DNA of 54,556 nt from positions 1 through 54,556 of the forward strand of contig CAZHMQ010000001.1 in assembly GCA_964533645.1 (NCBI GenBank), read 5' to 3'. Of this stretch, positions 1 through 25,520 are shown piece by piece. The first letter of the stretch is position 1. The number at the start of each line of letters is the position of its first letter. This DNA is from an uncultured Coxiellaceae bacterium (GTDB taxonomy: Bacteria > Pseudomonadota > Gammaproteobacteria > DSM-16500). The notes beneath the pieces are model-generated. The model was given only the letters and a program-made list of their open reading frames with translations, had not been told where the DNA came from and searched no databases. Made by a program: the position numbers and the translations under genes.

Positions 1-54
1 GTAGTCCCAAAGGTTTAGAGCTTGCGGACGCGGGTTCAATTCCCGCCGCCTCCA
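1..54 (+). ncRNA. ssrA: tmRNA (SsrA), 3'-terminal fragment: T-arm plus acceptor strand. The window starts inside the gene.
   Basis: GGACGCGGGTTCAATTCCCGCCGCCTCCA closely matches the remembered E. coli tmRNA 3' end GGACGCGGGTTCAACTCCCGCCAGCTCCACCA. The T-stem GCGGG/CCCGC flanks a TTCAATT loop. The CCA is not encoded. A P4-type integrase lies immediately downstream, as is usual for ssrA-targeted islands. Confidence 0.85.
26..41. repeat. attL core (inside the tmRNA T-arm)
   Basis: Identical 16-mer to 25505-25520. Confidence 0.75.
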
Positions 55-145
55 CTTAATTCTGATTCAATACCATCCAAAAACATACTAAAGGCCTTGA
101 AATAAAGGTCTTTTTTATTTATTCTTCGTCCTACCATGTCCAATA

Positions 146-218
146 GATACCCCCAACATCCGATGTGCTTTGGGGGCATTATCGGGGGTACTTCGATACC
201 CCAAAAAGGTGATACCCC
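146..218. promoter_or_regulatory. Cluster of GATACCCC motifs just upstream of int; candidate arm-type recombinase or Xis binding sites
   Basis: GATACCCC occurs at 146-153, 195-202 and 211-218. An inverted copy GGGGGTAC lies at 184-191. The same motif family recurs at 24466-24547. Confidence 0.4.
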
Positions 219-219
219 C

Positions 220-1434
220 ATGCCATTAAAAGACGTAACGATTAAGAATGCCAAGCCTCGCGAGAAGGCTTACAAACTTGCTGATGAAAAAGGTTTGTAC
301 CTTTATATCAAGCCCAATGGCTCAAAAGCTTGGCGCTTGAAATATCGATTCCTTGGCAAAGAGAAAACGCTCTCAATTGGCCTCTACCCTGATGTTGGCC
401 TATCAGATGCTAGAAACGCACGAGACAACGCTAGAAGAAAGCTCGCAGACAAGATTGACCCGGGTTTAGCCAAACAAGTATCTAAACATAGCGCAAAAGA
501 TGCCGCAGAAAACAGCTTCGAAACTATCGCGCGTGAGTGGTATACAAAATTCTCATCAAAATGGTCACCCAGCCATGGAGAGAGAATTTTACGACGATTG
601 GAAAAAGACATTTTTCCTTGGATTGGTAAACGCCCTATCGCAGAAATCACTGCACCAGAATTGCTATCAACTTTACGCCGCATGGAGAGTCGCGGCGCAA
701 TTGAAACAACGCATCGCGCCCACCAAAATTGCGGACAAGTGTTTCGTTACGCCATTGCAACCGGTCGCGCGGAACGCGACCCATCAAACGATTTAAAAGG
801 CGCAATCCCACCCGCGAAGAAAAAACATCATGCATCAATTATTAAACCAAGTGCAATCGGCGAACTCTTGCGCGCCCTCGATGGATATCAAGGGCATTTC
901 ATTACAAAGTGCGCATTACGCTTAGCGCCACTTGTTTTCGTAAGGCCAGGCGAACTACGCCACGCAGAATGGAACGAGTTTAATTTAGCAATTGGTGAAT
1001 GGCGCATACCTGCCGAAAAAATGAAAATGCGTGTTACGCATATTGTTCCCCTATCCACTCAGGCAATTGCAATTATACGAGAACTTAGAGCGTTAACAGG
1101 TGATGGCAAATATTTATTTCCTAGTGTTCGCAGCTCAAAACGTGCGATGTCAGAGAATACAGTTTTAGCAGCATTACGCCGCCTTGGTTACACCAGTAAT
1201 GAAATGACAGGTCATGGCTTTCGCTCCATGGCCAGCACTTTGCTAAATGAACAAGGCTGGACTCCTGATGCGATTGAACGCCAACTCGCTCATGGCGAAC
1301 GCAACACTGTTCGTGCTGCTTATAACTATGCTGAATATTTATCAGAGCGCAAAAAGATGATGCAGCAGTGGGCTGATTATTTGGATGAATTAAAAACTGG
1401 TGGAGAAATCATACAAATACGACAACGCGCTTAG
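220..1434 (+). CDS. Tyrosine recombinase/integrase, P4-like (DUF4102-type N-terminus)
   Basis: The N-terminus [44 protein letters not shown] is typical of P4/CP4-57-type integrases. The catalytic region contains HGFRSMAST (HxxR) and a C-terminal YNYAEY tyrosine. The start was moved to M29 of the listed ORF (ATG at 220). Confidence 0.9.
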
Positions 1435-4400: not shown

Positions 4401-4646
4401 CACAGAAGGTAACTCAGATTGTGTGATCTTGCGGATAGCATCCTGCTGCGCTTCTACAGGTATGTCTGAATTTAGTCGTGCAACAGCATCTTTAAACCTT
4501 TTTTCAAGTATTACTACATCGTGACTTTCACGCTCAGGCCGGAGACCATCCGGGCCTATAACTTCGTCATTCTCAATGCTGTAGTTAAGAGTTTTGAGCT
4601 GATCCAGCATACTGTTTTCTATATCAGCCTCGGACAAAAAAGCCAT
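1431..4646 (-). CDS. hsdR: Type I restriction enzyme R subunit
   Basis: 1071 aa. It has a Walker A motif ([11 protein letters not shown]), a DEAH box (IADEAHRSQ), helicase C motifs ([17 protein letters not shown]) and a long helical C-terminus. It is the last gene of an hsdM-hsdS-X-hsdR operon. Confidence 0.93.
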
Positions 4647-4648
4647 TG

Positions 4649-6729: not shown

Positions 6730-8284
6730 AACCCAACCCCTTCAAGCTAGTGTCAATCGCAACATCTAGCTTGACCGCCGTTGCCCGCTGTTCGCGCCAC
6801 AATCGACTTAAACGCGACATCTTCTCATCGAAAGATTCGCCATCATCTTCTTGTTCTTCTGCCCCTACATATCTTCCGGGCGTCAACACATGACTATGTT
6901 TTTGAATTTCTTCTAAAGTTATCGATTTGCAAAACCCTGGTAGATCTATATATTCTCCAGCGCCTTTTTCTCCGCGCCAAGCATGATAGACGCTAGCAAT
7001 TCTGTTTACATCTTCATCGGTTAATTCACGGCGTGCACGATCAACCATAACGCCCAGTTTTCGGGCATCAATAAACAACACCAAGCCCCGCCGATCACGC
7101 AAATGTTCTTTGCCAGCTCTACCATTTGACTTGTCTCGCGCTAAAAACCATAAACAAGCAGGAATCTGCGTTGAATAGAAAAGTTGCCCTGGAAGCGCAA
7201 CCATGCAATCTACGACATCAGAATCAAGCATAGCTTTACGAATTTCACCTTCACCTGTTTGATTTGAAGACATAGAGCCGTTAGCCAACACAACACCTGC
7301 TGTGCCATAAGGCGCTAAATGGTGAATAATATGTTGAAGCCATGCATAGTTCGCATTTCCAGCAGGCGGAATACCATATTTCCAACGCACATCATCACGT
7401 AATCGCTCGCCACCCCAATCAGATATATTAAAGGGGGGATTAGCAAGCACATAATCTGCTTTCAAATCACGCAACTCATCCTTGTGAAAACTACCTTCAT
7501 TATTCCAGCGAATGTCAGAATCAATACCTCGAACGGCCAAATTCATTTTGGCTAATCGCCACGTTGTGTAATTCGATTCTTGCCCGTAGATGGCGATGTC
7601 GCCAATACGACCCCCATGTTCTTGTACAAATTTTTCAGATTGCACAAACATACCACCTGAACCGCAACAAGGATCATATACACGGCCAGAGTATGGCTCT
7701 AGCATTTCGACAAGCACTCGCACTACTGAACGCGGTGTATAGAATTCACCCCCGCGCTTACCTTCAGCGCCAGCAAACTGACCAAGGAAGTATTCATAAA
7801 CACGTCCCAGCACATCAGTGGACTTTTGACCCGTTTCATTCAGCGTGACACCAGAGATGAGGTCGATAAGCTCACCAAGCATTACCTTATTCAGTGCAGG
7901 TCGAGCATAGTCCTTGGAAAGCACGCCTTTGAGCGACTCGTTATCTTTCTCAATGGCACGCATTGCATCATCAATTAATGTGCCTATAGTAGGCAACTTG
8001 GCATTTGCTTGCAGATGTGACCAACGCGCCTCTTTGGGCACCCAAAACACATTTTCCGCGAGATACTCATCCTTGTCTTCTGCCGCATGCGAGTCTTCGG
8101 CTAGCAAAGCTTTGCGCTTCGTCTCGAACGCATCCGAGATGTACTTCAAAAAGATAAGCCCAAGCGCGACATGCTTGTAGTCAGAGGGCTCCATGTTGCC
8201 GCGGAGCTTATCTGCAGCCTTGAACATGTCAGCTTCAAAACCTAGGTTGGCACCATTAGGGGATTTGTCGTTCTTCGCCATCAT
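6719..8284 (-). CDS. hsdM: Type I R-M N6-adenine DNA methyltransferase subunit
   Basis: It carries an AdoMet motif ([12 protein letters not shown]), the catalytic NPPF ([11 protein letters not shown]) and an HsdM N-terminal helical domain ([12 protein letters not shown]). Confidence 0.93.
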
Positions 8285-9999: not shown

Positions 10000-12066
10000 A
10001 TGAAAAAATCAAATGAAACTGCAAAAGAAGCGGCGCATCGCCTCAGCCAAAAATCTATAAATGATGGTTTTCAGCCAGAGGCGTTGCATGAATATACTGA
10101 TGCTAACGGTAATACACTATATTGGCGAATTCGTTTAAAAAATCCAGAAACAGATGATAAATGGATTCGCCCAATGCGATACGACGATGCACAAGGCTTC
10201 CTATTGAAAGAACCAGATTATGTTAATGGTAAGCCTTTATATAATTTACATCGACTGTTATCGAAAGAAAAAAGCCCAGTAATAATCGTAGAAGGTGAAA
10301 TGTGCGTTGATCGTCTGACGGGACTTGGCGCACTTTCAACTACAAGCGGTGGCGCAGGTTCTGTCGAAAAAACAGATTTGCAAATATTAGCTGGGCGATC
10401 AATTATAATATGGCCTGACAATGATGATCCAGGAAAACGTTTTGCAGAAGCTTTTACCAAAAAGCTAATACCCCTAGGTTGCGAAATTCGACGAATTAAT
10501 ATTAGTGTCTTAAATCTTCCCGATAAGGGTGATGTCATAGATTGGTTGACAATGAATCCTGATGCGACCATCGAAGACATTTTAAAACTACCAACAGAAC
10601 CGGTTGGTAATAAAGACTCCAGTAAGCAAGACGATGAGACTCCCGAAAACGAGCTAACAGAGAAATCACAAACAACTGCTTTAGTCGATTTCACGAGAAC
10701 TCGAGTTAAATTATTTCATGACAAAAATTCTGCTGTCTATGCACAAGACCTCTCTACTGGCGAAACCAAGCGACTTGATGGACGACAATTTAAAGATTGG
10801 TTAATTGCAAATTTTTATGAAGCCACTGGTAAATCGCCTAGAGACCAATCGATACGAGAAGCATTAAGTACGTTAAGTGGGCTTGCGAGATATCGAGGCG
10901 AATGCCACGAGGTACATATACGTGCGGCGTATAACGATGGTAAATACTATCTTGACCTGGCTGAACCCGGAAAAAGCCTGGTTGTCTGCATATCATCAGA
11001 AGGATGGGAACTTATTGATAACCCACCAGTTTGTTTTCTTAGACCTGAAACATTACAGCCATTGCCGGAACCGATGCGAAACGGCGATATTTCATCATTA
11101 TGGAATATGGTAAATGTTTCAGAGCATGATAGATTGCTAATTATTGCATGGCTAATCGATTGCCTGCGCCCCGAAACTCCTTTTCCTTTATTAGAATTTA
11201 TTGGTGAGCAAGGAAGCGCTAAAAGCACAACACAAATGATGCTGCGAAGATTAATTGACCCCAATAGCTGCGACCTGCGTGCAGCACCAAAAACAATCGA
11301 AGATATTTTTGTAAGTGCGGGCGTTAATTGGTTGGTCAGTTATGAAAACATCAGTCACCTTTCTCCGCAGGTTCAAGATGCACTTTGTGTATTAGCGACT
11401 GGTGGTGGATTCGCAAAAAGAAAATTATATAGCGATGCTGATGAGTCTGTGATTTTAGTTAAGCGTCCAGTTGTATTAAATGGAATCGGTGCCGCTGTAA
11501 CCGCACAAGACCTCATTGATAGAACTATATCTATTGAAACACCGCTCATTACCTTAAGAACGGAAATAACTGAGCTGTGGAATCAATATACGCTGCATCA
11601 AGCTGGTATGTTAGGCTCCTTATTAAGTATTTTTTCAGAATCACTTTCACGGTTAAAGCATATAACACTTCCTCAAGCTGACCGCCCACGATTAGCTGAG
11701 TTTGCAAAGTTGGGAATGGCAGTTGCTGAAACGATGGGTAAAAACGGAGAAGATTTTTTGGCACAATTCAATGCGAGCCGCCAAGAATCTATAGCACGCA
11801 CTATTGATGCCAGTCCCGTAGCTTCTGCGTTAATCGAGTGGTTCGATGACTGCAATCGACGTACAACAGTGTTGCCCGTCAAACAGCTTTTTTTGCAGGT
11901 TGAACGAAAAAAACCACTCAATACTGATAGCTGGCCTCGTTCAGCAAAGGGGTTTGCAGACGCATTACGCCGCATGGCTCCCGCATTACGTTACATTGGA
12001 ATTGAGTGTCGAAGTTTAGGTAAAACTGGCAGTTATGTTTCATGGGAGATCAAGCAAAAAGCGTAA
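10000..12066 (+). CDS. Toprim-domain primase fused to a P-loop NTPase (replication protein of the island)
   Basis: Toprim motifs are present: VIIVEGEMCVDRL (Glu) and IIIWPDNDDPGKRFAE (DxD). A downstream Walker A-like motif is GEQGSAKSTT. The gene starts 2 nt after the zinc-finger ORF stop. Confidence 0.8.
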   Translation: MKKSNETAKEAAHRLSQKSINDGFQPEALHEYTDANGNTLYWRIRLKNPETDDKWIRPMRYDDAQGFLLKEPDYVNGKPLYNLHRLLSKEKSPVIIVEGEMCVDRLTGLGALSTTSGGAGSVEKTDLQILAGRSIIIWPDNDDPGKRFAEAFTKKLIPLGCEIRRINISVLNLPDKGDVIDWLTMNPDATIEDILKLPTEPVGNKDSSKQDDETPENELTEKSQTTALVDFTRTRVKLFHDKNSAVYAQDLSTGETKRLDGRQFKDWLIANFYEATGKSPRDQSIREALSTLSGLARYRGECHEVHIRAAYNDGKYYLDLAEPGKSLVVCISSEGWELIDNPPVCFLRPETLQPLPEPMRNGDISSLWNMVNVSEHDRLLIIAWLIDCLRPETPFPLLEFIGEQGSAKSTTQMMLRRLIDPNSCDLRAAPKTIEDIFVSAGVNWLVSYENISHLSPQVQDALCVLATGGGFAKRKLYSDADESVILVKRPVVLNGIGAAVTAQDLIDRTISIETPLITLRTEITELWNQYTLHQAGMLGSLLSIFSESLSRLKHITLPQADRPRLAEFAKLGMAVAETMGKNGEDFLAQFNASRQESIARTIDASPVASALIEWFDDCNRRTTVLPVKQLFLQVERKKPLNTDSWPRSAKGFADALRRMAPALRYIGIECRSLGKTGSYVSWEIKQKA

Positions 12067-13252: not shown

Positions 13253-14686
13253 TTATGTTTCTGATTTATAATTTGTTAACCATTTATGCAGAAACTCAGT
13301 GGCATTTACGTCATCTTCATTATAATTGATAATATCTTGCAATATATTTCTATCGTTTGTTTCGAGCCACGTCTCATACCAAAATATACTTTGAGCACCC
13401 CCAGCTTTTTCGTGTTGCCATTTAAAATCAAGATATTTTGCTATATCTTTTATAGAGTAAAAATACACAGGAAATGCAAATGAAATTGCGGTTATTTTTC
13501 TCAAATCGATCAGATTATCGACAAACAATCCAAGCTCTCGACAACTACCATATTTATCAGATAATATTTTTAATCTGGTTTTTTCTGCATCACTGTAATG
13601 GTAAATTTTTACATCATCAAAATTTTGATTCTTGAGCCAATCAATAAATTTATTCCACATTTCGCTTTCTTCTTCGGGATTTTCAGCTAAAAAATATTTA
13701 AAAATTGGTTTAGAATCCGGCTTTGAAAGAAGCAGACCAAACAAATAATCAACCCCTAACAAGGGATCATACTCCACATCAAAATAAATTTTTGTATGGC
13801 AGTCCGGTATATCTGGTTTAGCTAAAGGAATAACCTCATCATTGACAAATGCTTTTGCTTGTAAATGTAATCGCTTTAATGTGGAATCACTAGCTCCTCT
13901 AATTTTTGGCAATGAATCAATATTGCATTTCGCCATATCGCTTAAAGTTTTTATGCCTTCTTGATTTAAACTTTGCAGCGTATCAGCCCTAATATTATAT
14001 AGCAGTGAAATGTCTGATTTTTGCTCCGCATAGTCAAGTAGAACTTCCGCCCAAGGCGTGCCCAATGCATCCTTAGTAATTTTTAAAGGTGGCTCCTCAC
14101 CTCGAAGAATGCTCAAAATATTGCTGATAGCTTCATTGGTACTTTGCAATATCTTCTCAGTTAATTCGCAGGGAATTTCTTGTTTATTTTTATTTATGAA
14201 GCCTCCAATGGACGGCCTATATCCCTGTATTTTTTCTAAGATAATTGCATATAACATTAATTGTTTTTTGTACTCTGGCTTATTATCAAAATTCATTGAA
14301 TTTTTTATTTCTACTGGTATGTAATAATAATTACCGAAATTTGAAATGCCACTGTACTTCTTAAGAAAATCCGGACGCCCTTTAAATTTTACATCACCAT
14401 CACTGCAGGATATGACGCCTTGATATATAAGTTCTTCTCCAGATTTCATGTATTCTAGCGTTAATTTTTCTGCTTCATCTTCCGATAAGATTTTATTAAC
14501 AGTAACTTTTTGCATGTCTTTAACACAGTCTTCTTCGTGTAAAACGCCACCCTCAATTAGACGTAATGTTAACTCCGGCAGTGCGATTTTTTTTGATTGA
14601 TCCCCATGAACGTCATACCATATCCAATGTGGCGATTTTGCATATTGAAAAAACATAGACGGGCTGATTTCCAATAGCTGATCCAT
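13253..14686 (-). CDS. TM0106-type RecB-like nuclease (N-terminal PD-(D/E)xK domain plus C-terminal RNase H-like exonuclease fold)
   Basis: GRPDFLKK ... YYIPVEIKNS gives D...ExK. The C-terminal half has IYFDVEYDP (DxE), IYHYSDAEKTRL and INYNEDDVNATEFL, as remembered for the TM0106 family. Confidence 0.68.
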   Translation of the reverse strand: MDQLLEISPSMFFQYAKSPHWIWYDVHGDQSKKIALPELTLRLIEGGVLHEEDCVKDMQKVTVNKILSEDEAEKLTLEYMKSGEELIYQGVISCSDGDVKFKGRPDFLKKYSGISNFGNYYYIPVEIKNSMNFDNKPEYKKQLMLYAIILEKIQGYRPSIGGFINKNKQEIPCELTEKILQSTNEAISNILSILRGEEPPLKITKDALGTPWAEVLLDYAEQKSDISLLYNIRADTLQSLNQEGIKTLSDMAKCNIDSLPKIRGASDSTLKRLHLQAKAFVNDEVIPLAKPDIPDCHTKIYFDVEYDPLLGVDYLFGLLLSKPDSKPIFKYFLAENPEEESEMWNKFIDWLKNQNFDDVKIYHYSDAEKTRLKILSDKYGSCRELGLFVDNLIDLRKITAISFAFPVYFYSIKDIAKYLDFKWQHEKAGGAQSIFWYETWLETNDRNILQDIINYNEDDVNATEFLHKWLTNYKSET

Positions 14687-15141: not shown

Positions 15142-16299
15142 ATGTCTGAAGCCAAATTCGAGCACCATGACTTAAGGTTAGTCGAGCCTTTTTTCGGCTC
15201 AAAATTGACCGATTTAATTATTGAGCTAGAGCATTTAAGAAAAAAACGTCTTGGGGGCACCACCCATGCATTGGTATTTTTTCAGCTAAAACATATATTC
15301 CATACTCTTGAAAGTATCGGATCAGCAAGAATTGAAGGCAATAACACTACTATTGCAGAATACATTGAAACCAAAATAGACCAGTCTCAACCACCCCCTC
15401 CCAATATAAAGGAAATTAAAAACATCGAAGAAACAATGTCTTTTATTGAAGAACACATTAATGGCACCCCTATTAATCGCATCTTTGTGAGTGAAATACA
15501 TAAAATGATTGTTAATGGGCTAGAAGCGCCTCCACAAGGCGAAGGTGATAAAACCCCAGGAGAATACAGAAGCAAAAATGTCAAAATTTCCAGATCGATG
15601 CACATCCCACCAGACATGAGCACCGTCAGCCAATATATGGATAATCTTTTCGAATTTATAAATCAAAATGACAGCGCCAAACATGACCTTCTCAAAATTG
15701 CGATTGCACATCATCGTTTTGTCTGGGCGCATCCCTTCACCAATGGTAACGGTCGAACTGTTCGCTTATTTACTTACGCGATGTTAGTTAAATTAGGGTT
15801 CAACGTTAGCGCAGGCAGAATTCTAAACCCAACTGCTATTTTTTGTAATAACAGAGACAATTACTATCACAATCTCGCAATCGCCGACAAAGGAACCGAT
15901 GAAGGACTACTAATTTGGTGCGAATACGTACTAAAAGGATTAAAAGACGAAATTGAAAAAATAGATAAATTAGCTGACTATGAGTATTTACATAAAGAAA
16001 TTCTTTTACCAACTATCAATCACTCACTTGAGCGACAATACATAACAGAAAGCGAAGCTAAGATACTTAAACGTGTTACTGATAAACAAGTCATCCAAGC
16101 ATCCGATCTAAACGATCTTTTTACAGGAAAAGCTAAATCTGAAATATCACGCCAGATTCGAAAATTAATTGAAAAGAAAATGCTAATACCAGAAGGTGAA
16201 GGAAAAAGAAAATACGTTATTCGATTTGATAACAATTATTTATTAAGAGGCGTTATTAAATCTTTAGGTGAAAAAGGGTTTCTCCCCATCAAAGATTAA
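15142..16299 (+). CDS. Fic family protein (AMPylase-type; class II with N-terminal inhibitory helix)
   Basis: The Fic motif is HPFTNGNGRTVR (HPFx[D/E]GNGR). The N-terminal inhibitory motif SARIEG fits [S/T]xxxE[G/N]. The C-terminal region is winged-helix-like. Confidence 0.9.
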   Translation: MSEAKFEHHDLRLVEPFFGSKLTDLIIELEHLRKKRLGGTTHALVFFQLKHIFHTLESIGSARIEGNNTTIAEYIETKIDQSQPPPPNIKEIKNIEETMSFIEEHINGTPINRIFVSEIHKMIVNGLEAPPQGEGDKTPGEYRSKNVKISRSMHIPPDMSTVSQYMDNLFEFINQNDSAKHDLLKIAIAHHRFVWAHPFTNGNGRTVRLFTYAMLVKLGFNVSAGRILNPTAIFCNNRDNYYHNLAIADKGTDEGLLIWCEYVLKGLKDEIEKIDKLADYEYLHKEILLPTINHSLERQYITESEAKILKRVTDKQVIQASDLNDLFTGKAKSEISRQIRKLIEKKMLIPEGEGKRKYVIRFDNNYLLRGVIKSLGEKGFLPIKD

Positions 16300-16350: not shown

Positions 16351-16767
16351 ATGAAAAAATTAATTCAGTATAGGGGAAAAACCAACAGCTTACGTCATAC
16401 TATAGGCTCAAACAATGAATCGTTTTTCCATATCGCACTATTTGAACTAGATAATCAAAAAATCATGTTAAAAATGGCCGAACCAATTTTTCTCGATAAT
16501 GATGATGAAATTATTGTAATAGGATGGATAAAAAATAATTTATTTCATGGAATAGCATATTATAATTTATCAAAAAAAATTGCTATAAAAGCATCTCCCG
16601 TATGGATGCTACTTGTAGGGATAATACCTTTTTTTGTAGTTGGCTTGTTGACAACAATTTTTGGGATAGGCTTAATTTTTTTAGGTGTTTCATTATATTT
16701 ATTTTACTTATTAAAACGCAATCTACAGGCTAATGAACTGATTGATAATTTAAACAAAATTACGTAG
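16351..16767 (+). CDS. Small protein with a C-terminal two-helix membrane anchor
   Basis: 138 aa. It has hydrophobic stretches VWMLLVGIIPFFVVGLLTTIF and IGLIFLGVSLYLFYLL. It lies 51 nt downstream of fic on the same strand. The RBS is weak. Confidence 0.5.
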   Translation: MKKLIQYRGKTNSLRHTIGSNNESFFHIALFELDNQKIMLKMAEPIFLDNDDEIIVIGWIKNNLFHGIAYYNLSKKIAIKASPVWMLLVGIIPFFVVGLLTTIFGIGLIFLGVSLYLFYLLKRNLQANELIDNLNKIT

Positions 16768-16773
16768 AAAAGT

Positions 16774-19557
16774 TTAACGCTGCTTGACTAATAAAGCCCG
16801 AATAATAGTATCCAAAACTTCATCCAAATATTTCCCAACATCTTCTGCCAAAAACCTCAACACCGTGTAACCATTCTCCTGCAGCAGCGCATCTTTTTTC
16901 CGATCCCGTCGATAAGCATTTGGGTCTGTTAAATGCTGTTTTCCATCGATCTCAATGGCAATGCGCAGAGTAGAACACAACAAATCAATTTCCATATTAC
17001 CTAAACCATTAAAAGAAATTGGGAGCTCGACATTGAGGCGAAACAAGCCTGCTGTTTTGGATAACGTTTCAAGGCGACGATAAAGAAACGCTTCTGTTAC
17101 GCTGCGCGCTCGTTCAACTCCTTCTACTTCGTTCACCAATGAAACTGTCGCTTGTCTAAATAAAGAGGCCAGAGGTTCATCTACTCCATCATAAATAAGC
17201 CTTTTTATAGTTGTTGCGTAATCTGCCTTCCATTTAGGATCAACAGGCAATGGAACACTCGTAGGCCAACCTGAAATGGCATTAGCAGGAAGTAAAATTT
17301 TATAACCGATAGCTTCATAAGCTTTGCAGCGACGATTAAACATGCGCTCTAACATAGGAACAGAAAAATCAGCGTAATCGTATACTTGGACTTCCTTCTT
17401 AAGATCATAAAGGCGATGCAATCGACCTACATATTGCGCAATCGTTCCTTGCCATGAAACAGGCAATGTCAAAAATAATGTATCTAATCGAGCATCATCA
17501 AATCCTTCGCCAATAAATTTGCCTGTCGCAAGTATGACCCGCTCTTCTTGTTCTGGAATATTTGTTAGTTGCATGATTGCTTGATTAAGTTCTCTGGAAC
17601 TCATTCCTCCACGTAACACGATGAGGTTCTTTACCATGCAAGATAATTTTTGAAATAAATTATCTAAATGTTCATTTCTCTCAGTTAAAATAATGGGTGA
17701 GCGACCAACCTGAACCGCTTGAATCACATCAGAGCAAATAAGTTCGTTACGCATTTCATCTTTGATTAATTCATTATACAAATCTTGAAATTGAATTCGT
17801 AAATTTTCATTTCTCGGCTTAATAAATTGAAATGCAGTAGGACGAACTAAAACGGCATGCTCAAAAGGCTGATTTGCCGCTTGCTCTTTTGCATTGACCT
17901 GATAACTCACCGGACCACAGCGCATGGTAATCATTGGATGACGACCATCTTTTCTTTTAAGCGTGGCGGTAAGTCCCGTAATATATTTTGCTTTGGCAAG
18001 TCGAATCAGTTTTTCAAAATTATCAGCAGGTAAATGATGGCATTCATCAACAATCAAATGACCATATTGAGCAATCTGGTCATCCACAACATCCCCTCGC
18101 ACTAAGCTTTGAATCAATGCAACATCACATAATCCCGTTGGCTTTTTACGACCACCGCCAATTCGCCCGATGGCAGTTTTGGGTAAATCTAAAAAAGTTA
18201 ATAATCGTTCTATCCACTGCTCTTGTAATTGTTTGCGATGCACCAAAACTAGAGTGTTAACTTTTCTTTGCGCAATAAGCCAGGCAGCAACCACCGTTTT
18301 TCCAAAAGCAGTTGTTGCAGATAAAACACCTATGTCTGATTTCATCATGGCCTGAACTGCAGTTTCCTGCTCAGGTCGTAAATGACCACAAAAATTCGTA
18401 ATGAGTGGCTCTCCTAAATAAAGCTCATCTTGAATCGTGAATTTGATTTTTAAATCCGAAAATAACTGGCAAATATCATTGAGACAACCCCGCGGTAAAC
18501 CGATGTGATGCGAATAATCATGCGCACATCCAATAACGCGAGGAATTTGATAAACAGGAAGTCGCATCGCCTGTGCTTTGTAAAATTCAGGATTCTGAAA
18601 TGCAGCCAATCGAATTAAACGGTTTCTAAGCGAAGGTGATAAGATATTTTTTTCTATAAAAATTTCGTTTCCTATTACGAGGTCAATTTTTTCAGGTAAA
18701 TCCACGATAGGAGTAACCTGTCGACGCGAAGGAAGCGCTTTCCAGGGAGTTGGATTATCTTCTTCTGTCACTTCGAGTCGTACACCAATCGTCCAACCTT
18801 TTGCTTCAGCGCGCTCAACTATCGCTTCAACTTCAGAACGTGCCAGTTTGCGTAAACTCGATACAAAAGCCCATTGATCTTCGTAAGGAATTAAATTTTC
18901 ATCTAAGAATATACTATTACCAGCTTGGCGTGCTTTTTTCTGTAGTGGAAGAGCAATCAAGTTTCCAAAACCGCCTTTAGGTAAAGTATCTTGATTCGGG
19001 AAAAATCGATCATAAGAATCCAAGCCAACATCAGGTTGCTGCTCCATTGTTTCTGTCAGCAAATAAGAACCTAATTTTCTTGCCAAACCTGCAGGAATAG
19101 CCTCCGTAAAAAACAACCAAACATGCGCTCCTTTGCCTGATCGTGACCGTTCAAGAGCCGCTTGCAAATTCATTTGTTGGCAAGTTTTCAAATAAGCGAC
19201 TGCATCTTTTTGCCATGTGCTTTTATCAAAATCAACCGCGAGAAAAAAGCATGTTTCATCTAAGAACATGGGATAAACACCCATGACAAAATCTTTGCCT
19301 TTATCATCTAATCCCAAAAGATGCCAACGTATTACCTCATCTGTCACCGGCAAGAAACGTCGATACTGGCAGTTGATGCATTTAATTTTTGGTTTTTCGC
19401 AAACACCTCTTACCCACTCATTTGCACAAGCAGGTGCATATCCCGCTTTTTGAGTTTTTTGGTTTTCAAATCGGCGAGGATAGATATCATCTCTTCCACG
19501 AAAAAGTGAACGAAATAATGCGATTTTATCGATAGTAGGTGATTCTTGATTTACCAT
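16774..19557 (-). CDS. Three-domain fusion: archaeo-eukaryotic primase-polymerase (PrimPol) + SF2 DExH helicase + DUF559/Vsr-like endonuclease
   Basis: AEP motifs are LAVDFDKS (DxD), SGKGAHVWLFF and GNLIALPL. The helicase has TAFGKTVVAAW (Walker A), LIVDECHHL, GLTATLKR and QYVGRLHR. The C-terminus IAIEIDGKQHLTDPNAYRRDRKKDALLQENGYTVLRF is DUF559-like. Confidence 0.8.
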   Translation of the reverse strand: MVNQESPTIDKIALFRSLFRGRDDIYPRRFENQKTQKAGYAPACANEWVRGVCEKPKIKCINCQYRRFLPVTDEVIRWHLLGLDDKGKDFVMGVYPMFLDETCFFLAVDFDKSTWQKDAVAYLKTCQQMNLQAALERSRSGKGAHVWLFFTEAIPAGLARKLGSYLLTETMEQQPDVGLDSYDRFFPNQDTLPKGGFGNLIALPLQKKARQAGNSIFLDENLIPYEDQWAFVSSLRKLARSEVEAIVERAEAKGWTIGVRLEVTEEDNPTPWKALPSRRQVTPIVDLPEKIDLVIGNEIFIEKNILSPSLRNRLIRLAAFQNPEFYKAQAMRLPVYQIPRVIGCAHDYSHHIGLPRGCLNDICQLFSDLKIKFTIQDELYLGEPLITNFCGHLRPEQETAVQAMMKSDIGVLSATTAFGKTVVAAWLIAQRKVNTLVLVHRKQLQEQWIERLLTFLDLPKTAIGRIGGGRKKPTGLCDVALIQSLVRGDVVDDQIAQYGHLIVDECHHLPADNFEKLIRLAKAKYITGLTATLKRKDGRHPMITMRCGPVSYQVNAKEQAANQPFEHAVLVRPTAFQFIKPRNENLRIQFQDLYNELIKDEMRNELICSDVIQAVQVGRSPIILTERNEHLDNLFQKLSCMVKNLIVLRGGMSSRELNQAIMQLTNIPEQEERVILATGKFIGEGFDDARLDTLFLTLPVSWQGTIAQYVGRLHRLYDLKKEVQVYDYADFSVPMLERMFNRRCKAYEAIGYKILLPANAISGWPTSVPLPVDPKWKADYATTIKRLIYDGVDEPLASLFRQATVSLVNEVEGVERARSVTEAFLYRRLETLSKTAGLFRLNVELPISFNGLGNMEIDLLCSTLRIAIEIDGKQHLTDPNAYRRDRKKDALLQENGYTVLRFLAEDVGKYLDEVLDTIIRALLVKQR

Positions 19558-19650
19558 GATTCAATTTCCCGTCAATACGGAGTTTCGGAGGGCTGATTTG
19601 AAGTGTTCAGAAAAACCATATTCAACTAATTATTTGTCATCAACCATTTA
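19558..19650. repeat. Copy A of an about 90-bp direct repeat (degenerate att-like junction)
   Basis: TTCAATTTCCCGTCAATACGGAGTTT...AACCATATTCAACTAATTATTTGTCATCAA aligns with 24295-24390 at roughly three quarters identity by eye. Its first bases resemble the tmRNA core TTCAATTCCCGCC. Confidence 0.6.
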
Positions 19651-20307
19651 GTTGATGCTACCATTTAATTTTCTGATCTCATTTATGTTAGAGAACTTTT
19701 CAATAAACAAACCGCGGAGCGTATAAAAAGCAAAAAAATTATCTCTATATGCAATAATATAGCCTGCTTCGGGTTTCGAGTTATTGATTTTAAAAAAAAA
19801 TAAATCAGGATTTTTAAATTTTTTATTGTTTTTTTCTTGAAGTAATATTTTTTCAAATTCATTTTTATGTTTTTTACCCAACTCTTCACCATAATCCGAA
19901 GAAAATACGATAATTTTAAAAAATAAAATCATCACGACTGTAATAAAAATTAGGCATAAAGAAAATAAAAATAAATAAATTTCAGTATTAGGAAAATTCT
20001 TCTTAGAATTATTAATAAAATATCCTGACAAATTATATTTATCTATGATGACTCGAGAAAAAATTAAAATAAATATTATACAGGATGAAATTACAATTGC
20101 ATTTTCAAAAAAATGATAAGAATATAAAATAATAACCTTACCTCCAAAAAATAGAATTGTGTTAAGTCCCTCTTCAAAAATGCCGTGAGGAACGCCAAAA
20201 ACACGGAGATAAGCACTATAATAATTAAGGCCAGCAGCATATAATATTGCAATTATTATCGGAAAAATAATAGTAAGTATATTTATAGCAAAATACTCTT
20301 TCTTCAT
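19648..20307 (-). CDS. Polytopic inner-membrane protein, unknown family
   Basis: 219 aa with at least four hydrophobic helices (INILTIIFPIIIAILYAAGL; ILFFGGKVIILYSYHFF; VISSCIIFILIFSRVI; IYLFLFSLCLIFITVVMILFF). It is extremely AT-rich and lies downstream of the 708-aa gene on the same strand. Confidence 0.6.
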   Translation of the reverse strand: MKKEYFAINILTIIFPIIIAILYAAGLNYYSAYLRVFGVPHGIFEEGLNTILFFGGKVIILYSYHFFENAIVISSCIIFILIFSRVIIDKYNLSGYFINNSKKNFPNTEIYLFLFSLCLIFITVVMILFFKIIVFSSDYGEELGKKHKNEFEKILLQEKNNKKFKNPDLFFFKINNSKPEAGYIIAYRDNFFAFYTLRGLFIEKFSNINEIRKLNGSIN

Positions 20308-20380
20308 AAAACTCTATGCCCCATAAAATTTTGTTAATTGTAGGTAATCTATAGTGTATTAATCATTAAAAATATTAAAT

Positions 20381-22507
20381 TTATTTTGCAACACTAGAAA
20401 TACCGAGCATTATCATTTTTTTCTCAGACCCAGACAGTCTCGTGTTTTTCAGCACTTCATTAAGTTTCGAGTGATAAAACTGTTTTTCCTCGTGTGAAAA
20501 TTCTGACTTTAACTTCCAACCCAAATGAGATAACAAATTTGCCAAAACCAATGTATCGTTTTCGTTACGAATAAAGGTCAAAATAAACTGATCTTTCTCT
20601 TTATCACTGTGCGTCATGGTGGCTGCATACGCACCAAGCCAGTTACATAATGGAATATTCTGTGATTTAGATAAGACCTGAGCATTATCAGAAAGCAGTT
20701 GTTGCTTATTATGCATTAAATGCTGTCTAAGAATATCTCTAACGCTATCATCAATTGATGCAGGAGATATTTCGTTCAATACAAAGCATGTTGTATGACT
20801 AAACAAACTTGTAGCGTCATTCGTTATTAAACTTGGCAATAAAATTCTTTGCTGTTCTTGACTTGAAAATGCCATTCTTAATTTTAGCAATGCACTGTCT
20901 TTACCAGAAAGCAACGATTCCGCATTCATCATATATTTTTTTCCGAATGTTTTTTCAATATCCTGCTGCGCCTGCTTAGGCGGAACAATAGAAGGATACA
21001 GCTGTATAACATATCGCAAAATTTCCTTGTTCTTTGATGTTATTAGCAAATCCTGCATGAAATTTTGTATTTTTATAATATTTGGAATTTCATTATTAGC
21101 TTCCACTAAATCTGCTTGACTGTGGAACTGGATAGAATTAATCATCATGATTAATAGGTGTTGTTGATTTTCTGTATTTTTCTGTGATTGAAAATTCTGA
21201 ATAAACTCTGATGTTAATTCAATGGGTTTCAGTGCATCCAAACAATCGATAAGATAAGTAAATTTATCTGGATTATCTTGATACTTGATAGCTAGCGACC
21301 ACAGTTGATTAAGTTTTACATATCGAGAAATTTGTTCGTCTTTGACAAATCGATACGTGGAATAATCAGCTTGTCTAATATTAAACTTTTGCGCTGCAAA
21401 TACTGAATCTAATTGAACTGACTGAATAAGTAGATTAATGTCCTTGACTGGATGAGAAGCGCCAACACACTTGGCTCCTTCAAAACTGCGACAAGCCACA
21501 AAAAAATCAAACATATCCACTGGCGAAAAAGGAAACATAAAGACCGGAAAAATATGCAAGTTTGCACCCATCAAATAAGCAAAATAAACAAATGAATCGC
21601 AGCGAAATTTTGCCGCTGTTACAGCATTAAGTAACTGCCACTGATGGATAGATTGATTATATATGTATTGTGCACCGTCACTTCCCGGATGCCAGTCCCA
21701 TCCCATTGTATATTCAAAAGGATAAAGATCCTGCAAACTTGCTTTTGTAATTATGTCGCCGCTCTCATCGAAGGTAAGAGTGTTTTTTTCTACCAACCCA
21801 TACTTTTCTCCCCAATAAGGATAACCTGCAATATGTTTAAACTTATCTAGATAATCTACCTGAATACCATCGTGTGGAAAGTCGTCTGATTTTTTAAGAA
21901 CCTCAATAACAAACGAATTAGCAAATGATAATCCCACATGACCAAACACACTAACAACAGGCCATGCCAAATCGCGCGCAACAAGATCTGCATAACAGGA
22001 TTGGTGAGTATCGCATCCGGTTTCTCCTGCTATTGAGCCTTGTGGACAAACATAAGATGGTTCAATTCTAATTGACGTAAAATCAAGATCTTCTCCTTCT
22101 TTATTTTTGCATTCTCTTCTTGCGACCATAGGTACAACAGCACTTGGGTCAGACTTTGTCTTATTCCAGTCTGAATAACTGTCTATCCAACTGGGATAGT
22201 CATATGGCGAATGCTCAGAATCCCTATCTAAACGAATATCGCTCCATTCGCAATACTCATGAATAGGGACACCAGAAAGCAAGTGTTTAGCAACTTCCTC
22301 TACAGACCCTTTTTCCTTATCGTGATAGGTTTTAAAAATTTGTCCACCACATGAATCCAATCCATCATATTCAACAGATGTATACCAGTATCCAGAAAAA
22401 ATTGGCAAAACATGCTCAGCTTTTGCAATTTGTATTTGGCAGAGAAACAGTAGGCATGACGCAATAAACACTCTAGATTTTCTTGAATAATTTTTCAGAT
22501 ATTTCAC
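20381..22507 (-). CDS. Secreted 708-aa protein: N-terminal region with a permuted papain/NlpC-P60-like His..Cys order, plus a long helical C-terminal region
   Basis: The signal peptide is SRVFIASCLLFLCQIQIAKA. FGHVGLSF...VIEVL is followed about 110 aa later by KFRCDSFVYFAYL, which resembles the YiiX/YaeF-type order (HxGI ... CSElVy.aY). No other family was recognised. Confidence 0.6.
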   Translation of the reverse strand: MKYLKNYSRKSRVFIASCLLFLCQIQIAKAEHVLPIFSGYWYTSVEYDGLDSCGGQIFKTYHDKEKGSVEEVAKHLLSGVPIHEYCEWSDIRLDRDSEHSPYDYPSWIDSYSDWNKTKSDPSAVVPMVARRECKNKEGEDLDFTSIRIEPSYVCPQGSIAGETGCDTHQSCYADLVARDLAWPVVSVFGHVGLSFANSFVIEVLKKSDDFPHDGIQVDYLDKFKHIAGYPYWGEKYGLVEKNTLTFDESGDIITKASLQDLYPFEYTMGWDWHPGSDGAQYIYNQSIHQWQLLNAVTAAKFRCDSFVYFAYLMGANLHIFPVFMFPFSPVDMFDFFVACRSFEGAKCVGASHPVKDINLLIQSVQLDSVFAAQKFNIRQADYSTYRFVKDEQISRYVKLNQLWSLAIKYQDNPDKFTYLIDCLDALKPIELTSEFIQNFQSQKNTENQQHLLIMMINSIQFHSQADLVEANNEIPNIIKIQNFMQDLLITSKNKEILRYVIQLYPSIVPPKQAQQDIEKTFGKKYMMNAESLLSGKDSALLKLRMAFSSQEQQRILLPSLITNDATSLFSHTTCFVLNEISPASIDDSVRDILRQHLMHNKQQLLSDNAQVLSKSQNIPLCNWLGAYAATMTHSDKEKDQFILTFIRNENDTLVLANLLSHLGWKLKSEFSHEEKQFYHSKLNEVLKNTRLSGSEKKMIMLGISSVAK

Positions 22508-22943: not shown

Positions 22944-24023
22944 ATGTCGAGTGGAACAAGTGTGAATAGAAAGCCCCAACGTATTGAACTAATCAAACAA
23001 ATTCAAAATGAACGAAATTCATCTTTAATTACTTATCTAACCAGTACTCGGCCCGGCCTTGAAGTGCCCATGAATATTGACATTATTAGATATATATATG
23101 ACCATTTGGAAAAAATTAAAAATGGACACAAGGGTAAAACAAAACCAAAAATTGATCTGCTGATTCATAGCAATGGCGGAGATGGGATTGTTCCCTGGCG
23201 ATTAGTTACTCTTATTAGAGAATATACTGATGACTTTGGTGTTTTAGTGCCTCATCGAGCTTTTAGTGCAGCAACTTTAACTGCTCTTGGTGCAAATGAA
23301 ATCATCATGCACCCGATGGGTATGCTTGGTCCAACTGACCCTTCTGTTAGCAATCAATTTAATCCAGTAAATAATAAATCAGGCCTACATATACCAATTA
23401 GCGTAGAAGATGTAATTGCATATATACAGTTAATAAAAGAAGATGTAGGTATCAACCATGAAGATGAATTAGTCCAGGCATTTAACATATTAGCAAACCA
23501 AATTCATCCCCTTGCTCTAGGCAATGTGAGAAGGTCTATTTCTCAATCTCGAATGATGGCTTCCAAATTATTAAATTTGCACATCTCACCAAAAGAGCAA
23601 CATAAAATAACAGAAATCGCTGATAATTTAACTTCTAAGTTGTTTTATCATGGGCACCCAATTAATAGAAAAGAAGCTCGAGAACAAATTGGCTTAGACA
23701 CGGTAAGAGATGCCCCGCTTGAATTAGAAGCACTAATGTGGAAGCTATACCTTGAATACGAAGATGAGCTGAAATTACTTGCACCTTTCAAACCTGCTGA
23801 ACAATATCAAACAGAAATAACTAAAATACGCGCAGAAAAGAAAGGTAACAATATAAGTAAAACCAATCCAACTACCGCAAAAATTGCCTTTATAGAAAGT
23901 ACTTTCGATACCGATGTAGCAACATTAAGTTACGAATTAGTAGGCAACACTGAACAAAACGGCAAAACAAATGTTATTATGACCACCCTAGAGCAGGGCT
24001 GGCGCAAAGAGACAATGGAGTAA
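22944..24023 (+). CDS. SDH-family Clp-fold serine proteinase
   Basis: IDLLIHSNGGDGIVPWRLVTLIREY...VLVPHRAFSAATLTALGANEIIMHPMGMLGPTDP matches the remembered ClpP/SppA-fold 'serine dehydrogenase proteinase' pattern, with the nucleophile Ser in AFSAAT. Confidence 0.72.
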   Translation: MSSGTSVNRKPQRIELIKQIQNERNSSLITYLTSTRPGLEVPMNIDIIRYIYDHLEKIKNGHKGKTKPKIDLLIHSNGGDGIVPWRLVTLIREYTDDFGVLVPHRAFSAATLTALGANEIIMHPMGMLGPTDPSVSNQFNPVNNKSGLHIPISVEDVIAYIQLIKEDVGINHEDELVQAFNILANQIHPLALGNVRRSISQSRMMASKLLNLHISPKEQHKITEIADNLTSKLFYHGHPINRKEAREQIGLDTVRDAPLELEALMWKLYLEYEDELKLLAPFKPAEQYQTEITKIRAEKKGNNISKTNPTTAKIAFIESTFDTDVATLSYELVGNTEQNGKTNVIMTTLEQGWRKETME

Positions 24024-24286: not shown

Positions 24287-24390
24287 GGACGCCGGTTCAA
24301 TTTCCCCGTCAGTACGGAGTTTTTGGGGGCTTAATTGGGGGCTTCTCAGAAAGACCACATTCACTTAATTATTTATTATCAATCAGTTAC
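24287..24390. repeat. Copy B of the about 90-bp repeat, preceded by a decayed tmRNA-core copy
   Basis: GGACGCCGGTTCAATTTCCCC compares with the tmRNA GGACGCGGGTTCAATTCCCGCC. The rest aligns with 19558-19650. Confidence 0.6.
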
Positions 24391-24690: not shown

Positions 24691-24846
24691 GCTTATAAGC
24701 CACCATTCTATATTCTAGAATCTGGAATGACTAAATTGTCCATATTTGGCGTTTTGAACTCGTGAAATTTTTGCACTTGTTGACTCTTTGCTTAATTTGC
24801 TTTCAAAAATCAGAGAATTTTGGTTTTCAAAAAATCGGGGTTAAAA

Positions 24847-24862
24847 ATGTCGAATTCGACAT
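24847..24862. promoter_or_regulatory. Perfect 16-bp palindrome ATGTCGAATTCGACAT upstream of the 178-aa ORF
   Basis: The sequence is self-complementary. A related CTCGAATTCGGGGG lies 12 nt downstream. It sits about 90 nt upstream of the GTG start at 24951. Confidence 0.3.
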
Positions 24863-24950: not shown

Positions 24951-25487
24951 GTGCCACAATTTCGCCTAACACAAAAATTTGCAACAGACTGCAAAATTAA
25001 ACAATTGCATGAGCCTTTCACCATAACACATCCACTTGATGACTGGTTTATTGACCGAATGATTGTTGATCGCAAGAAAATAGCGATAATCACCCATGCA
25101 AAATCTACCTTCACTTTTTTTATCCCCTACGCTGATGCAGGCAGCGCCAAGGGAATGATCGCTTATTTTAAAAATCAGCTCAAAGAACTGTTTCAGCAAA
25201 ATTCATTACCAGCACTTGCTTTTGAAGTGGAAAAGCTGTTTGCAGAAGAACTCATCTTTGTTAAAACAGTTGATAGAAAAATCCTGGGGCACATGAACGA
25301 CTTTAAACGCTGTGCTGAACCCTACCCAGGTGATCCATTGCCTGTTGATTGGCATGATATCGCAGAGCGCATCAATAACATGCCAACCAAAGGTGGCGAA
25401 CAAGATTGGCTATACCCCGTGGAGCGTTTCAATAACTTACTGGGCGTCAATTTGTCAAAAAGAAAAAGTGAATTTTCTGCATTTTAA
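24951..25487 (+). CDS. Hypothetical protein (178 aa)
   Basis: The long ORF has balanced composition, a GTG start and no clear RBS. No family was recognised. Confidence 0.5.
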   Translation: MPQFRLTQKFATDCKIKQLHEPFTITHPLDDWFIDRMIVDRKKIAIITHAKSTFTFFIPYADAGSAKGMIAYFKNQLKELFQQNSLPALAFEVEKLFAEELIFVKTVDRKILGHMNDFKRCAEPYPGDPLPVDWHDIAERINNMPTKGGEQDWLYPVERFNNLLGVNLSKRKSEFSAF

Positions 25488-25504: not shown

Positions 25505-25520
25505 GGACGCGGGTTCAATT
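25505..25520. repeat. attR core (exact 16-bp copy of the tmRNA T-arm segment)
   Basis: GGACGCGGGTTCAATT is identical to 26-41. Sequence similarity to tmRNA stops immediately after it. Confidence 0.75.

Follow-up and report, generated by a model that had tools for sequence, protein, structure and literature searches.

A stand-alone gene for an AEP-TOTE primase-polymerase fused to an XPB-type helicase and a Vsr-fold nuclease in an ssrA island of an uncultured Coxiellaceae bacterium: a candidate single-polypeptide conflict enzyme

Primases fused to helicases are known from mobile elements: the pRN1 ORF904-type and P4 alpha proteins are primase-helicases of plasmids and satellites, which act at an origin and have hexameric helicases of superfamily 3 or 4 (SF3 or SF4). 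A motor coupled to a nuclease is found in the archaeal XPB-Bax1 complexes (PDB 6p4f, 6p4o and 6p66), and the core of the archaeo-eukaryotic primases (AEP) recurs in the CRISPR-associated primase-polymerases (CAPP), one of which we take to be PDB 7nqd. Hhe, credited to Gao et al. 2020, combines a helicase with a Vsr endonuclease. Hhe, Hna and the YprA-Vsr helicases of ARMADA/Druantia each carry, on one polypeptide, a helicase and a C-terminal Vsr-fold or other PD-(D/E)xK nuclease, and are (nearly) stand-alone cargo of islands (PMC12458937). The TOTE systems, credited to Aravind, Iyer and Burroughs 2022, are multi-gene systems, since they are defined as ‘TPR, OB, TBP, Effector’, and they often include RNase H domains (PMC12458937). 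Here, we have analysed a stretch of 54,556 nucleotides from an uncultured Coxiellaceae bacterium (contig CAZHMQ010000001.1, positions 1 to 54,556; this whole stretch is referred to as the window), in which a single gene joins the AEP domain that Pfam names after the TOTE systems (AEP-TOTE) to an XPB-type helicase of superfamily 2 (SF2) and to a nuclease of the DUF559/Vsr fold.

The explanation that we favour, at slightly less than an even chance, is that the product of this gene is a DNA-targeting conflict enzyme of the AEP-TOTE family that works as one self-contained polypeptide, and that the gene is cargo of an island of 24–25 kb inserted at ssrA. In its favour are three catalytic centres that are intact and invariant, a C-terminal effector that is swapped among relatives, a stand-alone organisation with no obligatory partner in 78 loci, and carriage on mobile elements beside toxin-antitoxin and defence genes; to these are added the name of the Pfam family, a strongest PADLOC match to a PrimPol profile labelled CAS-associated, the resemblance of the helicase-nuclease half to XPB-Bax1 in both sequence and fold, and a relative in Escherichia coli that occupies a cargo slot. 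The gene and its parts are as follows:

16774..19557, reverse strand: the complete gene, AEP-TOTE primase-polymerase, XPB-type SF2 helicase and DUF559/Vsr-fold nuclease (open reading frame (ORF) list and translation; Pfam, PADLOC and NCBIfam scans; 8,000+ homologues of the same architecture)
18823..19530, reverse strand: AEP-TOTE primase-polymerase domain, residues 10-245, with motif I D109-F-D111, motif II S140-G-K-G-A-H145 and the acidic cluster D180/D183/D190 (PF22548, PADLOC PrimPol PDLC01465, invariant residues)
19369..19428, reverse strand: four invariant cysteines within the AEP domain, C44, C53, C60 and C63, a putative zinc-binding element (alignment of 32 homologues; kept in the E. 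coli relative)
18418..18705, reverse strand: inter-domain module, residues ~285-380, a beta/alpha domain ahead of the helicase (segment model)
17293..18384, reverse strand: XPB/Rad25-type SF2 helicase, residues 392-755, with GKT 419-421, DECHH 504-508, TATLKRKDGRH 530-540 and QxxGRxxR 708-715 (PDB sequence search, Foldseek)
16792..17004, reverse strand: DUF559/Vsr-fold endonuclease domain, residues 852-922, with E856-x-D858 and E869-x-D871-G-x-x-H875 (PF04480, E=6.4e-12; alignment with PDB 3hrl; invariant residues)

The ORF encodes 927 amino acids from an ATG start, and the three elements that a sequence-only reading of this DNA had described, together with every motif that it quoted, are present in the translation and in the Pfam matches (DFD at residue 109, SGKGAHVW at 140, GNLIALPL at 198, GKT at 419, DECHH at 504, TAT at 530 and QYVGRLHR at 708). 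That reading had also suggested, correctly, that a Pfam AEP family named for TOTE conflict systems may cover the N-terminal domain, which matches PF22548 at E=4.3e-98 (328 bits against a cut-off of 27), over profile positions 1-229 of 230. The strongest PADLOC match is the PrimPol profile PDLC01465, labelled CAS-associated (E=2.5e-91); the NCBIfam matches, to the CAPP, XPB and RadD models, are all below their cut-offs. The relatedness to CAPP is one of the AEP core (NF040561, E=8.5e-21, 74 bits against a cut-off of 200; 7nqd, E=2e-7), while CAPP proteins have no fused XPB helicase or nuclease, and the window gene has no linkage to a CRISPR array or to cas adaptation genes: a repeat scan of the window found no CRISPR-like array or regularly spaced repeats, and no cas gene occurs among the ORFs scanned, apart from the Cas4-like domain of a 477-residue protein described below.

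AEP motifs I (DxD), II (SxxGxH) and III (acidic) are all intact, and across 32 homologues of 66-78% identity the residues C44, C53, C60 and C63, D109/D111, S138-H145 and D180/D183/D190 are invariant. The cysteine cluster is a putative zinc site, to judge from the alignment; the stretch from C44 to C63 has a pLDDT (predicted local distance difference test) below 50 in the structure model. The same 32 homologues keep, without exception, K420/T421, D504-E-C-H-H508 and Q708/R712/R715 of the helicase, and E856/D858 and E869/D871/H875 of the nuclease.

In the helicase, Pfam assigns residues 392-535 to ResIII (E=2e-20) and DEAD, and residues 615-716, weakly, to Helicase_C. The best sequence match in the PDB is Sulfurisphaera XPBII (6p4f, E=1.5e-21), followed by the XPB of Archaeoglobus fulgidus, and the top Foldseek matches of the full-length AlphaFold model are XPB of TFIIH, archaeal XPB-Bax1 complexes, T4 UvsW and RadD, with E-values down to 2e-18; the arrangement of the domains has been left uninterpreted, because the model is only moderate (pLDDT 68.5, predicted template modelling score (pTM) 0.35). 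SF2 motifs I, II, III and VI are present and invariant. After motif III, the stretch TATLKRKDGRH aligns with TATPERDDGKH of XPBII, in the region of the XPB ‘RED’ motif, and R535-K536-D537 lie here opposite the R-D-D of XPBII. The NCBIfam XPB equivalog model scores 63 bits against a cut-off of 610, and the helicase is, by these comparisons, XPB-like and not an XPB orthologue. The likeness to XPB-Bax1 extends to the coupling of the motor with a nuclease and to the domain ahead of the motor, which is weakly XPB-like: the linker segment 255-395, modelled alone (pLDDT 72.8), has no significant Foldseek match (best E=0.09) and shows no TBP, OB or TPR fold, and its weak top matches are the N-terminal domains of XPB, T4 UvsW and archaeal XPB. 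The differences are that the nuclease of the window protein is fused in cis, that it has the Vsr/DUF559 fold and not that of Bax1, that an AEP domain is added, and that the RED position reads R-K-D.

The nuclease domain matches DUF559 (PF04480) with 45.8 bits against a cut-off of 20.6, and aligns residue by residue with PDB 3hrl, a solved DUF559 structure described as an ‘endonuclease-like protein’, through the pattern D...E-x-D-G-x-x-H; its catalytic activity is a predicted one. In its fusion of a motor to such a nuclease the protein resembles Hhe, Hna and the YprA-Vsr helicases; those, however, have helicases of the DNA2 or YprA type and no primase-polymerase, unlike the XPB-type motor described here. 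None of the PADLOC models of Hhe, Hna, Nhi and Druantia is among the 13 PADLOC matches of the window protein, where the helicase region is matched weakly by PbeA, type IV REase, HamB, BrxH and others.

If the three centres work together, the AEP domain, with its putative zinc site, would bind single-stranded DNA that a foreign element exposes while entering or replicating (a conjugative strand, or an intermediate of a phage or plasmid) and would start a short primer; the primer-template or bubble junction would then load the XPB-type motor, which, by analogy with XPB-Bax1, may open or translocate on the duplex from that junction; finally, the motor would place the C-terminal Vsr-fold endonuclease where it could nick or cut the template, and the establishment or replication of the foreign DNA would be aborted. 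The substrate, the order of these events and the protection of the host or of the island are what we infer.

A different use of the AEP domain was proposed in the sequence-only reading, i.e. the synthesis of a signalling or decoy nucleic acid; such a product would activate or direct the nuclease. The AEP catalytic residues are all in place and do not vary, as described above, and nucleic-acid-synthesising defence enzymes do exist, for example the systems based on reverse transcriptases; however, neither Pfam nor Foldseek finds in the protein a domain that could sense or receive this product, there is no partner gene, and an enzyme fused to a DNA motor would be expected to act on DNA in cis. 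We have found no specific support for this proposal and consider it highly improbable.

Our search for partner genes covers 80 loci from species-representative genomes and 3 metagenomic loci; the clustering of neighbours covers 78 loci from at least 9 phyla. When all flanking ORFs are clustered against one another, no family of neighbours reaches more than 7 of the 78 loci, even at E<=1e-3 without a coverage filter; the most frequent family, present in 7 loci, is that of integrases, and the orientation, size and spacing of the neighbours are unconstrained. Because no neighbour is conserved and the arrangement is free, we regard the gene as a stand-alone unit, in agreement with the one-gene system that the sequence-only reading had envisaged.

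The connection with TOTE systems holds for the effector and not for the other components. The window protein has a full-length, high-scoring AEP-TOTE domain, and its AEP domain and nuclease provide an effector-type component; the TPR, OB/cold-shock and TBP components are neither adjacent, in the window or in the 78 loci, nor fused within the protein. No TPR component is found among the window neighbours or in the 78 loci, and TPR is absent from the recurrent families of 130 immediate neighbours; no OB-fold or cold-shock component is found among the window neighbours, the 130 immediate neighbours, the 78 loci or in the linker model; no TBP component is found among the window neighbours, the 130 immediate neighbours or in the linker model, where highly divergent or unlinked partners could escape. 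The gene therefore carries a TOTE-type AEP domain and fails three of the four defining features of TOTE. A canonical TOTE operon was also sought near nuclease-less, PLD-type and short AEP-TOTE proteins (9 nuclease-less or PLD loci), and none was found; at one of these relatives (L084), the two small genes located upstream have no Pfam match.

Two genes of low GC (guanine-cytosine) content that lie directly upstream of the AEP gene were considered as partners:

19648-22507, reverse strand: two low-GC genes directly upstream of the AEP gene, encoding 708 amino acids (signal-peptide-like N-terminus, helical C-terminal half) and 219 amino acids (multi-pass membrane protein)

Neither can be taken for the TPR-OB and TBP partners, having no Pfam or PADLOC match and no recurrence in homologous loci; by eye, the 708-residue product resembles a signal-peptide protein and the 219-residue product a hydrophobic membrane protein. 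A 485-residue gene downstream of a homologue (L001) was also compared with the 477-residue gene of the window and is unrelated to it (E=0.59). The gene could be the effector of a canonical multi-gene TOTE system if its TPR-OB and TBP partners were unlinked or too divergent to be recognised, an arrangement to which the name of the Pfam family lends some colour by tying the AEP domain to TOTE systems; with no TPR, CSD/OB or TBP match among the window neighbours, two upstream products that look, by eye, secreted or membrane-bound, no neighbour conserved in the 78 loci or in the 9 nuclease-less or PLD loci, and a linker without a TBP, OB or TPR fold, we hold this to be very doubtful indeed.

The architecture is neither rare nor new, and the window gene is a typical member of a catalogued, computationally described family: more than 8,000 close homologues share its architecture, and the RefSeq name of the E. 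coli relative is ‘TOTE conflict system archaeo-eukaryotic primase domain-containing protein’, a name that NCBI also gives to a 67%-identical homologue (P0074). With the AEP domain alone as the query, an exhaustive search returns 7,672 clusters at 50% identity, 1,502 of them with E<=1e-30. Relatives occur in at least 586 of 185,579 species representatives, which makes the gene patchy and accessory; they come from at least 9 bacterial phyla, and from groups that include Legionellales, Coxiella, Planctomycetota, Acidobacteriota, Verrucomicrobiota, Chlamydiota, Riflebacteria, Desulfobacterota and Chloroflexota.

In 10 relatives examined with Pfam, the AEP domain and the SF2 core are the constant part, and the C-terminus is variable: it is absent (~800-830 amino acids), a DUF559 domain or a PLD nuclease (PLDc_2). 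Some of the 10 add an N-terminal GNAT or FMN-reductase domain, and in one a TraG-type ATPase replaces the SF2 helicase; an AEP-TOTE form of ~497 amino acids is one half of a split gene pair, with the AEP domain and the helicase encoded separately. Such swapping of effectors on a constant core is typical of conflict systems.

The family is also well conserved. Across the family-wide loci (L004-L083), mean identity is 60-73% between phyla, compared with 63-72% within phyla, the nearest relative belongs to the same phylum in 54 of 59 cases, and the GC content of the gene follows that of the flanking DNA from host to host (r=0.95, range 0.38-0.66); this adaptation to the host indicates long residence and argues against recent sweeps. 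Conservation of a housekeeping kind is here seen in a patchily distributed accessory gene with fully host-adapted GC content. What the present comparison adds to the description of the family is that the nuclease-bearing form stands alone, without TOTE partners, that it evolves slowly, and that its nuclease-less siblings ride on mobile elements.

This conservation across phyla, with GC content adapted to each host, and the lack of any need for partner genes would suit an accessory enzyme of DNA repair or damage tolerance, in which the Vsr-fold domain nicks beside a lesion or mismatch, the XPB-type motor unwinds, and the AEP domain refills the gap. In E. coli, Vsr acts in repair as a nickase, and gap filling is known for bacterial AEPs, for example the polymerase domain of LigD. 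The closest solved relatives of the motor are repair helicases (XPB/TFIIH, XPB-Bax1, RadD and UvsW), Y-family polymerases account for 2 of the 130 immediate neighbours, and an SbcCD-like pair lies upstream in L089/L090; a preprint reports that PPRT, another defence protein that contains a PrimPol, also contributes to the response to oxidative damage (PMC12439943). The patchy, accessory distribution (at least about 586 of the 185,579 representatives; intact in 13% of E. coli) speaks against a repair role, as does the location of the gene in mobile islands, plasmids and transposons; a nuclease that is swapped or absent in close relatives would be unusual for a fixed repair pathway, and the neighbours are enriched for toxin-antitoxin genes. 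On balance, we consider repair unlikely, while keeping it among the explanations to be taken seriously.

The nuclease-less form, composed of the AEP domain and the helicase, is found in 93 plasmid records at a query coverage of at least 80% (~52% identity over residues 2 to ~765, no DUF559), and the AEP domain alone matches 121 plasmids. The DUF559-bearing form has not been seen on the plasmids of PLSDB, the full-coverage matches among those listed ending at residue ~752-808, and a megablast search of the 12-26 kb segment of the window against plasmids gave no match. In phage records, none of the 1,648 matches covers the AEP domain, and the matches are to UvsW-type helicases only; an origin of the architecture in phages was considered and rejected, as no phage record holds the AEP domain together with the helicase. 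A single contig of IMG/VR has a relative, placed after a gene with a HipA-like motif.

We have inspected 12 plasmid or other mobile contexts of nuclease-less relatives, 9 of them sampled plasmids. In five alphaproteobacterial plasmids, the relative adjoins genes for an ArdC-like zincin, ParB-N, DUF736 and WGR, near TraG or a relaxase. In Sphingobium yanoikuyae pTB1 (L096, 1014-9283), it is the fifth of a series of overlapping genes, after those for a TnsA-like protein (a weak match), a TnsB-like protein (rve and Mu-transposase C), TniB and TniQ; the fifth position is the place of TnsE in Tn7. In Sinorhizobium meliloti pMl1 (L094, 7637-11274), a TniQ gene is located directly upstream of the relative. 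In this Tn7-like context, the protein could be an accessory of target selection or of replication, or could simply be the first cargo gene. A Pantoea relative lies between a resolvase and a fragment of a Tn3 transposase, and an Acinetobacter relative lies after a HigBA pair. A three-gene tyrosine-recombinase element (‘recombinase in trio’) is situated directly downstream of the relative in 3 of the 9 plasmids (L093, L095 and L101, from roseobacter and Agrobacterium hosts); the position of the trio may be a preferred insertion site.

The E. coli relative (WP_000233452.1) has 786 amino acids, is 45% identical over residues 8-755, and keeps all AEP and helicase motifs and the cysteines. It lies in an integrase island, after the genes for AlpA, YfjI and an inovirus-type Gp2 (replication-initiator-like):

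L109, 11001-13361: the relative in E. coli O157:H7 PV15-279, within an island of the order int, AlpA, YfjI and YfjJ/Gp2

It matches 1,730 of 5,426 complete E. coli genomes, nearly all of the matches being chromosomal; coverage is at least 80% in 684 genomes, i.e. ~13% hold it intact, and further ~1,050 genomes have low-coverage matches only. Two low-coverage matches, of 8 listed, have been inspected, and both are 5' pseudogene remnants: the first lies in the same type of island and is followed by different cargo, a gene for a 1,652-residue AAA-domain protein and a partner gene; the second lies among insertion sequence elements and virulence genes. The presence of remnants with other cargo makes the slot look like a position of cargo turnover.

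These contexts bear on a further explanation, in which the protein serves the element that carries it, either as a primase-helicase for establishment or replication on transferred or excised DNA, or as a weapon or anti-defence device against competing elements. The plasmid counts speak for such a service, as do the proximity to TraG or a relaxase in 5 of the 9 sampled contexts, the place in the pTB1 operon, the E. coli gene order after YfjI and Gp2, and the presence in the window island of an integrase and a Toprim/primase-like gene; moreover, fusion of a primase to a helicase on mobile elements is what pRN1 ORF904 and P4 alpha have in common with the window protein. The motor, however, is of the monomeric SF2 type and XPB-like, unlike the hexameric SF3 or SF4 helicases of the known primase-helicase replicases, and the window protein differs from those further in its nuclease and in having no conserved linkage to an origin or replication module. 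All NCBIfam replication models stay below their cut-offs (CyRepA1 at 13.8 against 200), the DUF559 form is missing from the listed PLSDB matches, most of the 78 loci are chromosomal, an added endonuclease is not needed for priming, and no phage carries the architecture. We judge service to the element to be unlikely, although it remains a serious contender. The sequence-only reading had held that homologues acting as plasmid or phage replication proteins, with no link to defence islands, would speak against a defence gene; the half of this that concerns the carriers has come about, in that nuclease-less relatives are common on plasmids and transposons.

A bolder form of the conflict-enzyme reading would make the primase an immune sensor. 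Foreign single-stranded DNA would be recognised by the act of priming on it, and the primer-template junction so formed would be the signal for the attached XPB-type motor and Vsr-fold nuclease to degrade the DNA. The chromosomal forms with a nuclease would then descend, as ‘weaponised’ versions, from the nuclease-less primase-helicase of conjugative plasmids and of Tn7-like or Tn3-like transposons, and one core would serve either the establishment of an element or the exclusion of incoming DNA. We offer this as a conjecture that is, on present evidence, rather unlikely.

The comparison of 130 immediate neighbours of the gene, from 67 loci, with a control of 130 genes located at least 6 kb away in the same loci has revealed a local excess of toxin-antitoxin genes. 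The commonest Pfam families in the near set are PIN (5), AbiEii (4), ParE (4), HTH_3 (4) and Phd (2); PIN, AbiEii, ParE and Phd together account for 15 of 130 near genes, compared with 2 (at most 5) of 130 distal ones (Fisher p=0.002-0.03). The distal control is dominated by transporters, regulators and metabolic enzymes, with 2 PIN matches among the 25 families listed. Single near neighbours match the PADLOC models of BrxA, JetD, MzaA, MADS and a Type I methyltransferase. Chromosomal contexts predominate among the 78 loci; 7 loci have an integrase at a distance of up to 5 kb, and housekeeping genes start within 6 kb. The gene resides in small variable islets that are rich in toxin-antitoxin modules.

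Several points weigh against a conflict enzyme. The survey of homologous neighbourhoods that the sequence-only reading had called for bears out an enrichment of toxin-antitoxin genes and not one of defence genes as such: PADLOC models number 123 in the distal control, which includes MADS components and methyltransferases, compared with 110 in the near set, and a specific enrichment in defence islands is therefore not demonstrated. The nuclease-less relatives in conjugative-plasmid backbones and in a Tn7-like operon fit a role in the service of the element at least as well. Evolution is very slow for an accessory gene, unlike that of fast-turnover defence proteins, and the tracking of host GC content reflects long residence. 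The role given to the primase is one that we purely infer, and full-text searches of the literature for TOTE, AEP-TOTE and PrimPol-helicase-DUF559 found no experimental work, in line with the earlier statement that no mechanism had been experimentally shown for this architecture.

Should the protein prove to be a working one-gene restriction device, it would represent a mechanistically distinct class of immunity that couples priming with a motor and a nuclease, and it would account for a gene of which ~13% of complete E. coli genomes (O157:H7 among them) have an intact copy, which is spread over at least 9 phyla, and which has so far only a computational name. Slow evolution, stand-alone organisation and nuclease-less mobile forms make this family a clean system for studying how replication parts become weapons, and the E. 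coli islands, the plasmids and the transposons with nuclease-less siblings are a direct experimental entry point; for the window itself, the result is a modest one.

The island that carries the gene extends from the end of the transfer-messenger RNA (tmRNA) gene ssrA to copies of the tmRNA T-arm at its far end, and contains the following features besides the AEP gene and the two genes upstream of it:

1..57, forward strand: 3' end of the tmRNA gene ssrA, left junction (attL side) of the island (Rfam RF00023, 49 bits against a gathering score of 47, E=1.1e-18; the 5' side is cut by the start of the window)
136..1434, forward strand: P4-type tyrosine integrase (Arm-DNA-bind_3, Phage_int_M and Phage_integrase domains)
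1431-8284, reverse strand: Type I restriction-modification operon, HsdM, HsdS and HsdR (domain scans)
4649-5392, within the restriction-modification operon: Abi_C-domain gene inserted between hsdS and hsdR
10000-12066: Toprim/primase-like gene (domain scans)
13253-14686, reverse strand: 477-residue fusion of a Cas4-like PD-(D/E)xK nuclease and an RNase_H_2 (PF13482) exonuclease fold
15142-16299, forward strand: Fic gene, SoFic-like (PADLOC SoFic, E=2e-47)
16351-16767, forward strand: 138-residue follower of Fic, no family match
22944-24023, forward strand: SDH-type ClpP-like serine protease gene
24287..24308, forward strand: imperfect repeat of the T-arm segment of the tmRNA (GGACGCCGGTTCAATT...), candidate for the inner right junction (blastn, 20/23 identical)
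24951-25487, forward strand: DUF6933 gene, candidate defence family PDC-S63 (E=6.5e-28)
25505..25520, forward strand: 16 nt identical to positions 26-41 of the tmRNA (GGACGCGGGTTCAATT), candidate for the right junction (attR), immediately ahead of the MFS-transporter backbone (16/16)

The association of the AEP gene, within one island, with a Type I restriction-modification operon containing Abi_C, a SoFic-like Fic gene, a Cas4/RNase-H-fold nuclease and a PDC-S63/DUF6933 gene is a further point in favour of a conflict enzyme. The AEP gene is convergent with the Fic gene and its 138-residue follower, which may be a partner or regulator of Fic, and the stop codons are 6 bp apart. The Fic module lies between the Cas4/RNase_H_2 gene and the AEP gene, and no homologue of the Cas4/RNase_H_2 gene was found beside AEP genes elsewhere. 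A scan for promoters and terminators gave fewer matches than in shuffled sequence, and a pair of repeats (D3, 19452-19487 and 24813-24848, 72% identical) was taken to be due to chance.

The ssrA end at 1-57 and the T-arm copies at the far end indicate that the island spans the interval from ssrA to ~24.3-25.5 kb; none of 300 shuffles shares any 16-mer with the tmRNA end, and transporters of the major facilitator superfamily (MFS) begin at 26.4 kb. The convergence with the Fic module, as described in the sequence-only reading, is correct; the accompanying placement of the gene at the edge of the island, next to an att-like junction, is not, since the gene is internal to the island, with the right repeats 4.7-6 kb beyond it. 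The two T-arm copies lie 1.2 kb apart with the DUF6933 gene between them, which suggests a tandem or nested integration at ssrA.

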